This document shows, piece after piece, positions 24,001 to 33,000 of a stretch of DNA of 64,000 bases. A program made the position numbers and the translations under genes. Each line of letters begins with the position of its first letter. The stretch's first letter is position 1. The stretch lies in assembly GCA_032718475.1 (NCBI GenBank), contig JAUCBJ010007036.1, positions 1 to 64,000 on the forward strand. The letters run 5' to 3'. Under the pieces are notes generated by a model, which saw only the letters and a list, made by a program, of their open reading frames with translations, had not been told where the DNA came from and made no database searches. Origin of the DNA: Nemertoderma westbladi (taxonomy: Eukaryota > Animalia > Xenacoelomorpha).

Positions 24001-27000
24001 CAGTATAAACGTAGCTACGCAGTAACCCGCGCAGGACAACCGGAACGCCTCGATGGCCTCGTTGTAGGCGCGTTCGTCTTTGTTTTTGTCTTTGATCCAC
24101 TGGTGGATCGCGTCCGATCGGATCTGGTACTTGGCGGTGACCCCGGCACTGCGTTGGATCTCCATAACGGTCTTGGCGTTGGGCACCACCTAGAGGGGAG
24201 CGGATGTATTGACGATATTAAATACGGCAAAAGTCGGAAGCAGGTTGGGGCGCTCCCACAATGTCTGTAAACCTAGTTTTAGTACAGTCCAAATATACGC
24301 GTGTCTCGGAATGGAAACTGAGACCTGAGTTTACCAAGGGTTACCTGTAATCCTTGATCGTGGTTCAGTGTTGATCATTTTTTATCTTCTACATTATTAC
24401 ATTTGATAACGTTTGACAAAGCCGTTGTGAGCCTGAGATATTGGTTCGTTCAAAATTACATTAGACAGACAGATATGCCCCAATTTTTGGCCCGTAGTAA
24501 ATAATTCTAGTGACTGAACTTAGTGCTTATCACAACGAGCATTGCTGATGTGATATTTTGTGCGCCAACTAGAGCAAATTGATGGCATTAATTAAGGGAA
24601 CACAACAATGCACCACAGTGGATAACTGCACTGCACCACGCAGTGATAAAGTTGGCATTGGTTTAACACAAACTAAATTCCACATAGGTGGCGTGACGCC
24701 TAGAAATGGGGTTAACTGGTCAAAATCACAATTCGAGGAAAACGCAGTTAAAGATTTAGAAGTTTAACGGAAGAGAAGTTTGAGTGTAGGTGCCGAAATT
24801 TTTGCCCCTCTCAGAATAAAATTTTATCATCTTTCAGAATCCGAAAATAAAATTTCGCTAGCACCAGTAGTTTTCGAGTTATAAGGACATCCTGTCACCC
24901 TTGTTGGTACTTATGGACTGAAAAATACAGACTTCTAGGTTCACCTTCGTTCAGTGACCTTATAGAGGCTGATTTTTGGATTTTTAGACTGCTGATATCA
25001 TTATTAACACTTTCCAATGAAATTCCATCGTGAAATATATAATTTTTATGAAAATTTTTATATAATTTTAAGTTAATTTTAATTAAAAGTAGCTCGAAAT
25101 TTTCACATTTTCAAAGTCGATATATGAGCCATATCTTCGATCCTACTACAGTAAGGTTTTCGCTTGCGCTGATTCCATTGGTAACATTCATAATTTGGTT
25201 AGATTGTCCAAATAGGCAGAAAAATGAAAAGACCCCCTTACTAGCACTTTTCAAAAATCGGAAGGTTCAAAAATGGAATTTGGATTATTCCAATCAATTT
25301 TATTTTGTTCCCATCGTGATCAGCGCCACAAAAACCCCATTAGACTGAAATTTAAATCGGATAAACGATCTGCTAACGGTGCAATTTTTTGGACTACTTG
25401 CACTTTTCGTTCCAAAATTTGGCTAAAAAAATAAAATTTTTCGTGATCAGACCAAATTTTTTTCAAATTCCAGTGGAATTAGGACCACAAAAACCCAACT
25501 ACACTTAGAATTGACATCATAAAATAACTTAAACTACTTAATTTATAGAATAATTAGCGTGATTTCACTTTCACCTCTGGAAATGGGGTCTCGTGAATGG
25601 ATTTTTGATGGACAAGACTACTTCAATTTCATTTTTCGAATATGCCTTATAGTATTATAGCGCATTGGAAAGATAAATAAATTTTCTATTCACTTTTATG
25701 AATAACTCAAAATCTTCCAGATGACCAGTTAACCCCTTTTCTAGGTGCCACGTCACAATTAGGAAGAAAGAATTGGAGGATTGGCACATGACCAACACCA
25801 CCTAGCGGAACAATAAGTTATAAAGAAACTTGAAGAGGAATATTATAAATACTAAATTCCGACACCACGCAGTAAGAGCTGTAACTCGTAAACGAACCTC
25901 AATCATCCCGATCTCATTCCCCATAGAGAGACAATTGTAAGCGGAAATCCTGAGGTTGAGACCTTCGCTCTGCCAAATGGAATCCATTATCCGCAACATC
26001 TGCAGAGTCAGCATATCCTGACGCAGATCGTCCCCGTTCTTGAATATAATCTTGTACTTCTCCATGTAAATCTCGGCCATATGATCGGGGTTGTTCCACA
26101 CCAGTCGGAGCGGACGTTTAGCCGACGGGAAGATTTTACATTCTTTTATCTGTAATTCTCCCAGTCGGTGGCACGGGTTCAACGGGGAGGGAACGTTCTG
26201 TATCCGTGCTATAACGTCACGATGATTGAGAACATCAGACACCAAGGCGTCCTTGCGTTCCCCCAAAGCCCCGGATATGGTTGTGAGTTTATCGATAACT
26301 TCAACTTGATCAATTAATGATTTTAAATAAGGACCGCACATTCTGGAATAAATAAACAATGTAAATTATTAGATGAAATGAAAACTACCGCTGGTATAAG
26401 GCTGGAATAAGTAACCCTCACCTGGTATAAGTAACCCTCACCTGGTATAAGTAACGCTCACCGGGTATAAGTAACCCTCACCTGGTATAAGTAACCCTCA
26501 CATGGTATAAGTAACCCTCACCTGGTATAAGTAAACCTCACCTGGTATAAGTAACCCTCACCTGGTATAAGTAAACCTCACCTGGTATAAGTAAACCTCA
26601 CCTGGTATAAGTAAACCTCACCTGGTATAAGTAAACCTCACCTGGTATAAGTAAACCTCACCTGGTATAAGTAACCCTCACCTGGTATAAGTAACCCTCA
26701 CCTGGTATAAGTAAACCTCACCTGGTATAAGTAAACCTCACCTGGTATAAGTAACCCTCACCTGGTATAAGTAAACCTCACCTGGTATAAGTAAACCTCA
26801 CCTGGTATAAGTAAACCTCACCTGGTATAAGTAAACCTCACCTGGTATAAGTAAACCTCACCTGGTATAAGTAAACCTCACCTGGTATATGTAAACCTCA
26901 CCTGGTATAAGTAAACCTCACCTGGTATAAGTAAACCTCACCTGGTATAAGTAAACCTCACCTGGTATAAGTAAACCTCACCTGGTATAAGTAAACCTCA

Positions 27001-30000: not shown

Positions 30001-33000
30001 TAACTCTCACGCGGTATAAGTAACTCTCACGCGGTATAAGTAAACCTCATCTGGTATAAGTAAACCTCACCTGGTATAAGTAAACCTCACCTGGTATAAG
30101 TAAACCTCACCTGGTATAAGTAAACCTCACCTGGTATAAGTAAACCTCAACTGGTATAAGTAAACCTCACCTGGTATAAGTAAACTTCACCTGGTATAAG
30201 TAAACCCTCACCTGGTATAAGTAACCCTCACCTGGTATAAGTAAACCTCACCTGGTATAAGTAAACCTCACCTGGTATAAGTAACCCTCACCTGGTATAA
30301 GTAAACCTCACCTGGTATAAGTAAACCTCACCTGGTATAAGTAAACCTCACCTGGTATAAGTAAACCTCACCTGGTATATGTAAACCTCACCTGGTATAA
30401 GTAAACCTCACCTGGTATAAGTAAACCTCACCTGGTATAAGTAAACCTCACCTGGTATAAGTAAACCTCACCTGGTATAAGTAAACCTCACCTGGTATAA
30501 GTAAACCTCACCTGGTATAAGTAAACCTCACCTGGTATAAGTAACTCTCACGTGGTATAAGTAACCCTCACCTGGTATAAGTAAACCTCACCTGGTATAA
30601 GTAAACCTCACCTGGTATAAGTAAACCTCACCTGGTATAAGTAACCCTCACCTGGTATAAGTAACCCTCACCTGGTATAAGTAAACCTCACCTGGTATAA
30701 GTAAACCTCACCTGGTATAAGTAAACCTCACCTGGTATAAGTAACCCTCACCTGGTATAAGTAACCCTCACCTGGTATAAGTAAACCTCACCTGGTATAA
30801 GTAACCCTCACCTGGTATAAGTAACCCTCACCTGGTATAAGTAAACCCTCACCTGGTATAAGTAAACCTCGCCTGGTATAAGTAAACCTCGCCTGGTATA
30901 AGTAACCCTCACCTGGTATAAGTAACCCTCACCTGGTATAAGTAAACCTCACCTGGTATAAGTAAACCTCACCTGGTATAAGTAACCCTCACCTGGTATA
31001 AGTAACCCTCACCTGGTATAAGTAAACCTCACCTGGTATAAGTAAACCTCACCTGGTATAAGTAACTCTCACGTGGTATAAGTAACCCTCACCTGGTATA
31101 AGTAAACCTCACCTGGTATAAGTAAACCTCACCTGGTATAAGTAAACCTCACCTGGTATAAGTAAACCTCACCTGGTATAAGTAACCCTCACCTGGTATA
31201 AGTAAACCTCACCTGGTATAAGTAAACCTCACCTGGTATAAGTAAACCTCACCTGGTATAAGTAAACCTCACCTGGTATAAGTAACCCTCACCTGGTATA
31301 AGTAAACCTCACCTGGTATAAGTAAACCTCACCTGGTATAAGTAAACCTCACCTGGTATATGTAAACCTCACCTGGTATAAGTAAACCTCACCTGGTATA
31401 AGTAAACCTCACCTGGTATAAGTAAACCTCACCTGGTATAAGTAAACCTCACCTGGTATAAGTAAACCTCACCTGGTATAAGTAACTCTCACGTGGTATA
31501 AGTAACCCTCACCTGGTATAAGTAAACCTCACCTGGTATAAGTAAACCCCACCTGGTATAAGTAAACCTCACCTGGTATAAGTAAACCTCACCTGGTATA
31601 AGTAAACCTCACCTGGTATAAGTAAACCTCACCTGGTATAAGTAACCCTCACCTGGTATAAGTAAACCTCACCTGGTATAAGTAAACCTCACCTGGTATA
31701 AGTAAACCCCACCTGGTATAAGTAAACCTCACCTGGTATAAGTAAACCTCACCTGGTATAAGTAACCCTCACCTGGTATAAGTAAACCTCACCTGGTATA
31801 AGTAAACCTCACCTGGTATAAGTAAACCTCACCTGGTATAAGTAACCCTCACCTGGTATAAGTAAACCTCACCTGGTATAAGTAACCCTCACCTGGTATA
31901 AGTAAACCTCACCTGGTATAAGTAACCCTCACCTGGTATAAGTAAACCTCACCTGGTATAAGTAACCCTCACCTGGTATAAGTAAACCTCACCTGGTATA
32001 AGTAACCCTCACCTGGTATAAGTAAACCTCACCTGGTATAAGTAAACCTCACCTGGTATAAGTAAACCTCACCTGGTATAAGTAACCCTCACCTGGTATA
32101 AGTAAACCTCACCTGGTATAAGTAAACCTCACCTGGTATAAGTAACCCTCACCTGGTATAAGTAAACCTCACCTGGTATAAGTAACCCTCACCTGGTATA
32201 AGTAAACCTCACCTGGTATAAGTAAACCTCACCTGGTATAAGTAACCCTCACCTGGTATAAGTAACCCTCACCTGGTATAAGTAAACCTCACCTGGTATA
32301 AGTAAACCTCACCTGGTATAAGTAACCCTCACCTGGTATAAGTAAACCTCACCTGGTATAAGTAAACCTCACCTGGTATAAGTAAACCTCACCTGGTATA
32401 AGCTTCTAGAAGGAGACCAAATCGTATCTGAACGGATGCGTCGTGCATTTCAGACTTTAGGTGCCAAAAAAAGAAGTGACCAATACGCCGGTTACTAAGG
32501 GCTCTGCCCAATAAGAATCTTGATAAAGGGTTGTCATGGTAACTCTCATTTCTGTGGGGAAAAAGTAATGTTAATTAGTTATATGCGAAAGTTTAAGCAA
32601 TAACATGGCAAATAACGGAGATTCATTCGGAGTTCAGTAGAGTTGAGAGTAATTTTTAGGGAAAGAAAAAAATAAAATAAAATAAAAAAACCGCAAATTC
32701 AGTCTTTTACTTTTTTCCTACAACTAAAAAGTATGTAACTTACTTGATTGCTTGGACTAACTGCAGTAGATATTGTAGGACCAATTCGTCGCAGAGGTTT
32801 CTAGCCAAACAATCGACGGCGAACTTCCGCACCCTCGGATCGGCGTAACTGCAGTCTAGGAGCTGCAACGCGACCTCCACGTCTACCACGGGCCAACCCT
32901 GGAGCAGCGCGTACAGCAGCGCCACGTGGTCACGTGAGTTCCAACGCACGCATTGCAACAGTTTACACAACGATTCGGGGCGCTCCTTAGCTTTGTGTCG

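Follow-up and report, generated by a model that had tools for sequence, protein, structure and literature searches.

The 64,000-nucleotide stretch analysed here (the window: contig JAUCBJ010007036.1 of Nemertoderma westbladi, positions 1 to 64,000) carries on its minus strand a gene which, judged from its homologs, is a class I PI3K catalytic subunit, alpha-like (PIK3CA-like). Intron 9 of this gene consists, for 99% of its length, of a tandem array of 20-nucleotide (nt) units, and the array begins inside the preceding exon: one unit comprises the last 10 exonic and the first 10 intronic nt, and the 5' splice site (donor) lies in its middle. We consider it likely that the intron was filled by a border-spanning minisatellite through duplication and unequal exchange, and that the extra donors are tolerated by-products. 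Exon numbers are those of an earlier note on this DNA, made from the letters alone; seven homology blocks lie upstream of exon 9 in the window. The features that carry the argument are as follows (a slash in a motif marks the splice border; X4 is a sequencing run considered below).

32393-32551, minus strand: exon 9, 159 nt; Pfam PI3Ka, E 2.8e-17; covered exactly by the spliced X4 contig.
26343-32392, minus strand: intron 9, 6,050 nt, GT...AG, in phase 2; 32393 and 26342 are adjacent in the X4 contig.
25898-26342, minus strand: exon 10; Pfam PI3_PI4_kinase, E 4.4e-15; X4 contig.
32393-32402, minus strand: exonic half of the first unit, CTTATACCAG, coding for the end of A-Y-T-R; array end at 32402 according to Tandem Repeats Finder (TRF).
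26402-32392, minus strand: the minisatellite's intronic portion, parsed into 299 units; TRF and motif scan.
26402-26421, minus strand: last array unit, with an intact CAG/GTGAGG 79 nt upstream of the acceptor (3' splice site).
26343-26401, minus strand: intron tail, 59 nt, composed of a decayed half unit, a T-rich stretch and the acceptor ...GTTTATTTATTCCAG/.

TRF places the array at 26402-32402, with 299.5 copies, 96% matches, 0% indels and a score of 10944; on the minus strand, its unit reads GTGAGGTTTACTTATACCAG. With <=3 mismatches, the unit is matched 295 times, against 0.00 expected from 100 shuffles, and a scan of the 64-kb window found no copy at <=4 mismatches outside 26380-32402. Parsing of intron 9 unit by unit gave 299 units, among which GTGAGGTTTACTTATACCAG accounts for 186 and GTGAGGGTTACTTATACCAG for 57, the remaining 56 being shared among 21 rarer variants. 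Unit length is 20 nt in 290 of the 299, the other nine being 19, 21 or 24 nt long.

Exon 9 terminates in ...GAAGCTTATACCAG/GTGAGG. Its last 10 nt (CTTATACCAG) are also the last 10 nt of the unit, and the periodicity breaks at the 11th exonic base, which differs. The exact motif CAG/GTGAGG is found at 266 of the 299 unit boundaries, the real donor counted, and the array thus holds 265 pseudo-donors identical to the real one. At 8 of 9 positions the motif agrees with the consensus MAG/GURAGU, as quoted in PMC1557585. Among the 33 altered boundaries are CAG/TTGAGG (7), CAC/GTGAGA (6), CAG/GTGGGG (4) and CAG/GCGAGG (4), followed by CCG/CGTGAG (3), CAG/GTGATG (3), CAG/ATGAGG (2) and five singletons. 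Variant cells number 43 over the 9 positions of the donor 9-mer versus 17 over 10 others (position 7 excluded), these cells being non-independent owing to internal duplications within the array.

The last two bases of exon 9 open an Arg codon (...GAA GCT TAT ACC AG), and exon 10, which begins at 26342 with A ATG TGC GGT, leads into the kinase domain. In the frame ...GAA GCT TAT ACC AG/G TGA, any later donor would yield AGG TGA, a stop after one codon; direct reading thus agrees with the earlier view that the first donor alone keeps the frame. Among the 99 motif-bearing proteins of the 120 homologs listed, the residues at the exonic half read AYCR in 52, Y or F is found in all 99 and R or K in 94. 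The exonic half therefore encodes conserved residues and is old coding sequence, the repeat having been copied from the border and not the reverse.

The earlier note had described about 300 tandem 20-mers in a PI3K gene, with a unit made of 10 exonic and 10 intronic nt, and both descriptions hold, the first by TRF, Pfam and the PIK3CA-like homologs, the second by direct reading of the borders. The span it gave, 26343..32402, is right as far as the intron goes (26343-32392), but the ten outermost positions, 32393-32402, are exonic. Its statement that every junction reads CAG/GTGAG was too sweeping, given the exact count of 266, and the roughly 50 nt of unique sequence that it placed before the acceptor are in fact a non-array tail of 59 nt, the first 11 of which are a decayed half unit.

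The identity of the host gene is supported by the succession of minus-strand exons, which match the Pfam domains PI3K_C2 (PF00792), PI3Ka (PF00613) and PI3_PI4_kinase (PF00454). Of 2,660 candidates, 1,036 proteins matched the exon on the array's downstream side at E up to 0.001. The top matches are named PIK3CA-like (E 3e-44), with identities <=56% among the best 120 of the 1,036; by such matches, the source species is without a close relative in the protein collection searched. Alignment of two full-length homologs by tblastn gave blocks that follow one another colinearly from 49533 to the stop codon at 20690, spanning residues 3-1040 of homolog P0001. Intron 8 occupies 32552-32743 (192 nt; CT..AC on the plus strand, that is, GT..AG on the minus strand), and the remaining gaps between the homology blocks are of about 190 nt or more.

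Evidence on splicing comes from run X4. No run is on record as RNA, and the label "DNA?" given to X4 is a guess; X4 behaves as RNA. Its 4,072-nt contig skips 32552-32743, covers 32393-32551 and, with its loose end at 32393, reads 26313-26342. At the other flank, the same contig covers exon 10, carries at its loose end the sequence of exon 9 beginning at 32402, and at its lower end runs on into the next exon at 24158-24187 (the alignment on exon 10 stops at 25896, since the letters GT fit either side of the next junction). Thus, at the contig level, the first donor (32393) is joined directly to a single acceptor, that of exon 10 (26342), in line with the earlier note's view that the first donor alone is productive. 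No contig of X4 matched array units, at 32330-32392 or at 26398-26470, or the tail of the intron; as contigs cannot show absence, this says nothing about intron retention or intermediates. At 85% likeness, the flanks found no match in X6, a run of organism B, or in X7, a run of organism C, and these runs are uninformative on the orthologous intron.

Both borders of the array are present in samples of two further studies. The comparison of contigs covered the two flanks of the array. Run X1 gave contigs at 32367-32655 and 25800-26436, run X2 one at 32390-32800 and run X3 one at 25812-26434, all leading from the flanking exons into repeat units. These contigs are DNA and carry differences from the window, so they do not simply represent the window's own haplotype: at 32530, X1, X2 and also X4 have A where the window has G, and in intron 8, behind 32733, X1 and X2 share 6 inserted nt. 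The depth of array words relative to flank words is about 336-393 (X1) and about 230 (X2) at the exon 9 flank, and about 600 (X1) and about 35 (X3) at the exon 10 flank; these ratios are mutually inconsistent, are not copy numbers, and are to be read as "many copies".

The array contains large internal duplicates.

27591-28895, unstranded: internal duplicate, copy 1, exact over 1,305 nt.
30381-31685, unstranded: internal duplicate, copy 2, exact over 1,305 nt, at an offset of 2,790 nt (139.5 units).

Further exact duplicates measure 339 nt at an offset of 2,810 and 336 nt at an offset of 504 (28704 and 29208), and the string of unit variants recurs at a lag of 139 units. The 1,305-nt and 336-nt duplicates reflect either recent unequal exchange or an effect of the assembly. 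This raises the question of whether the array is real but wrong in length, its copy number or its 2.8-kb internal duplication being artefactual. An exact duplicate of 1,305 nt could be the mark of a mis-joined repeat, and the disagreement among the depth ratios, from 35 to about 600, points the same way. On the other hand, the two large duplicates differ by a shift of one unit (offsets 2,790 and 2,810) and lie among variant units that are not duplicated; in all three DNA runs, the depth of array words exceeds that of flank words tens to hundreds of times, and contigs of other samples bridge both borders. We judge an error of length unlikely.

With the array collapsed, intron 9 would measure 48-69 nt, the value varying with the inclusion of the decayed copy. 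The earlier proposal that an intron of some 60-70 nt expanded about 100-fold is thus a fair estimate under the border-duplication model, within which alone it holds. According to this model, a piece of the exon-intron border would have been tandemly duplicated again and again, with unequal exchange, to give the minisatellite of 299 units of 20 nt; growth from the short ancestral intron would have proceeded in several rounds, including the large internal duplications.

At its far end the array is decayed (...GTGAGGGTTACTTATTCCAG CCTTATACCAG CGGTAG...), the half unit CCTTATACCAG CGGTAG... forming the first 11 nt of the tail. Decayed edges are usual in such arrays. More puzzling is the very end of the intron. 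Its last 15 nt (26343-26357, GTTTATTTATTCCAG) agree at 13 positions with the 15 nt that end the unit, a likeness equalled by 5 of 5000 shuffles and by 2 of the gene's 735 20-mers ending in YAG. Either the acceptor in use descends from a former repeat unit, or the ancestral intron had similar ends. A separate idea, that the beginning of exon 10 (GTGCGGTCCTTAT...) was the source of the unit's intronic half, was rejected, the likeness being equalled by 1,985 of 5,000 shuffles and by 594 of 2,263 windows of the gene.

How the gene would tolerate such an intron can be pictured as follows. The splicing machinery would commit to the most upstream donor, which is the first to be transcribed and closes the 159-nt exon; mutagenesis of the intron 7 repeat of the human F7 gene in mammalian cells showed the like. 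Transcripts spliced from later donors would meet an early stop and probably be degraded, and the 265 or so extra donors would be tolerated by-products, likely without the role of a device. The possibility that pseudo-donors are hidden by RNA structure was considered and rejected: the folding energy of the exon tail plus 9 units, -70.9 kcal/mol, is not special (z -1.76; equalled in 10 of 200 shuffles).

Several points weigh against this account of origin and tolerance. The copy number is taken from a single assembly, and the depth ratios disagree. The evidence on splicing consists of one assembled contig from one run, and assembly drops rare isoforms; moreover, a processed copy of the gene in DNA would yield a contig identical to that of X4, and a mature junction cannot separate removal in one step from removal in several. 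A rule favouring the nearest donor, or intron definition, would favour the intact donor at 26421, 79 nt from the acceptor, and not the first one; that the first donor is chosen exclusively across 6 kb is an assumption carried over from F7, with its 5-9 copies and its test in mammalian cells. Duplication on the donor side offers no explanation for the unit-like last 15 nt of the intron. At 48-69 nt, the ancestor would be shorter than every other intron that the gene has in the window, intron 8 having 192 nt. Finally, the neutrality of the array is a default assumption.

A different view concerns how the intron is removed. Units end in CAG and begin with GTGAGG, so that a splice from a donor to a later unit would delete whole units and recreate the border. 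The array might then be spliced stepwise, in several multi-unit steps through ratchet points of zero length, all of them converging on the correct mRNA; we judge this improbable. It is compatible with an origin by border duplication, being concerned with intron removal only. AG and GT are juxtaposed at 266 of the 299 boundaries. Each unit holds two branch candidates of the yUnAy type, TTTAC and CTTAT, whose A lies 30 and 26 nt before the AG of the next unit, within the range of -36 to -21 (peak at -30) reported for Drosophila recursive lariats by Duff et al. (10.1101/006163). The 13/15 likeness between the end of the unit and that of the intron means that a unit-like end works as an acceptor in this gene. 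Furthermore, the donor 79 nt from the acceptor could define a viable short intron, and its product could be spliced again from the first donor to give the same mRNA. A natural splice ratchet in this sense, with many multi-unit routes leading to one mRNA, including those that open with a cut from that last donor, is likewise unlikely.

Other observations argue against stepwise removal. Between -20 and -4, the acceptor offered by a unit has a pyrimidine fraction of 0.53 and a longest run of 3, versus 0.71-0.76 at five real acceptors of the gene, four of which have longest runs of 6-10, the run at exon 10 being also 3. By this simple measure, which involves no trained splice-site model, the units appear to be weaker acceptors than the gene's real ones, and the result speaks weakly against a ratchet. 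The length of the intron, 6 kb, is also unfavourable. The material on splicing consists of contigs, and since the junction of exon 9 with a unit is the same as the unspliced sequence, ordinary junction reads are blind to stepwise removal. A single 20-nt unit is below minimal intron size, too short for a lariat. A stepwise path would therefore need steps of more than one unit, and removal in 20-nt steps, as the earlier note envisaged, is unlikely on these general grounds. In F7, pseudo-sites stay silent as long as the first site is intact, according to the accessible portion of PMC1557585. The array does resemble the ratchet points of Drosophila in that AG/GT is juxtaposed inside an intron and would recreate a donor. 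However, in the part of 10.1101/006163 available, the Drosophila points are single conserved sites with strong acceptors, demonstrated by junction reads, sawtooth density and lariats, whereas those considered here are repeat copies with weak pyrimidine tracts, known from sequence and contigs. If it were true, a self-healing ratchet would explain how an extreme array is tolerated in an essential signalling gene.

It might also be supposed that the array is a regulatory device, acting as a U1 sponge or retention signal, as a transcription delay, or by leakage to stop isoforms, and that its length sets the output of PI3K. We regard this as very unlikely indeed. The facts in its favour are of a permissive kind: the 266 strong donor matches with their 8/9 fit to the consensus, the AGG TGA that every later donor would create, and the variable length of minisatellites (PMC3087553, as far as the accessible text goes). 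Against it stand the five other large minisatellites of the window, which have no splice motifs at exon borders and point to a general mutational tendency; the disabling changes scattered among the pseudo-donors, at 33 of 299 boundaries, with no sign of maintenance; and the ordinary folding of the array RNA (z -1.76; 10/200 shuffles).

Border-spanning minisatellites are a kind of element already described, and the present one is an extreme in scale, not a new principle. According to Borensztajn et al. 2006 (PMC1557585), intron 7 of human F7 carries a 37-bp repeat in 5-9 copies, whose first unit comprises 4 exonic and 33 intronic bp. The most upstream donor alone is used, the pseudo-sites being functional yet silent, and the authors invoke scanning oriented 5' to 3'. 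The same paper mentions IFI6 (6-16), with 26 copies and 25 pseudo-sites, the first two of these pseudo-sites being also used, CBS IVS13 (15-20 copies), LMNB2 (100 bp, 10-15 copies) and PDGF intron 4 (81 bp, 16-18 copies). Ebner et al. 2010 (PMC3087553) describe in amphioxus the "mirages", tandem repeats that span exon-intron borders in, among other genes, Adh3 (units of 10-72 bp) and the globin genes BflGb6 and BflGb9 (3-6 units). In these, many units keep AG/GT, regular splicing is undisturbed, length is unstable, and the middles are homogenised while the edges are decayed. In view of these precedents, the novelty implied by the earlier note was overstated.

As in the F7 group, the first unit spans the exon-intron border, the donor is repeated within the intron, the most upstream donor is used, and the later ones are out of frame or silent. 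On the copy numbers available for that group, 299 units compare with 5-9 in F7, 26 in IFI6, 15-20 in CBS, 10-15 in LMNB2 and 16-18 in PDGF, and a unit of 20 nt compares with 37-100 bp where a length is given. The array also makes up 99% of its intron and comes to within 59 nt of the acceptor. The donor is stronger here, CAG/GTGAGG versus TGG/GTGGGT in F7; F7 has a mutational test, while the present case has sequence and contigs. The likeness to the amphioxus mirages lies in the border-spanning repeat and the retention of AG/GT, the difference in the 299 units versus the 3-6 reported for the globins in the text available. A described case of this size was not found in a literature search whose coverage left out most subscription journals.

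The choice of one 5' splice site among equals is an old question, for which the F7 repeat has been the natural model. The present intron, where 6 kb hold 266 strong donors that are identical and end 79 nt short of the acceptor, offers a far harsher test of "most upstream" versus "nearest wins" than F7 does. It also tests whether resplicing rescues errors, in a host gene of invertebrate type with mostly short introns. The case bears on the growth of introns as well, border-spanning minisatellites being able to lengthen an intron some 100-fold while the essential gene around it survives.

The locus as a whole is strikingly rich in minisatellite arrays. TRF found five further ones in the window, of 12.7 to 138 copies, and the locus is therefore generally repeat-prone. 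One is a 36-nt minisatellite at 21209-23669 (68.5 copies, 94% matches), which takes up the greater part of intron 11, the one that separates the gene's last two coding exons. It was considered as a second border-spanning array and rejected, as it stops about 95-170 nt from the next exon, the lower and upper figures reflecting a count by the decayed edge or by the clean array, and about 215 nt from the exon on the other side. The other four large arrays lie downstream of the PI3K stop codon.

1-823: minisatellite, 63 nt x 12.7; TRF.
7076-8345: minisatellite, 44 nt x 28.9; TRF.
13047-16995: minisatellite, 28/55/139 nt x up to 138; TRF.
18364-20168: minisatellite, 41 nt x 43.9; TRF.

On the plus strand, the 28-mer among them reads TTTGTTTTAG/GT. 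A smaller repeat of 27 nt (3.3 copies, 33098-33205, minus strand) lies just upstream of the exon starting at 33081. The sequence at the end of its units, TTTATTTCCATAG, is similar to the real acceptor, ATTATTTCCGTAG, which follows after another 17 nt. This repeat was also rejected as border-spanning, since it resembles the acceptor tract without entering the exon; it may be a small relative, on the acceptor side, of the process that filled intron 9. Finally, the 12.7-kb intron between the homology blocks at 48732 and 36046 contains, in the orientation of the gene, a minus-strand open frame of 622 amino acids (38628-40493) with a reverse-transcriptase domain (Pfam RVT_1, E 1.1e-27), which is probably a retrotransposon copy.

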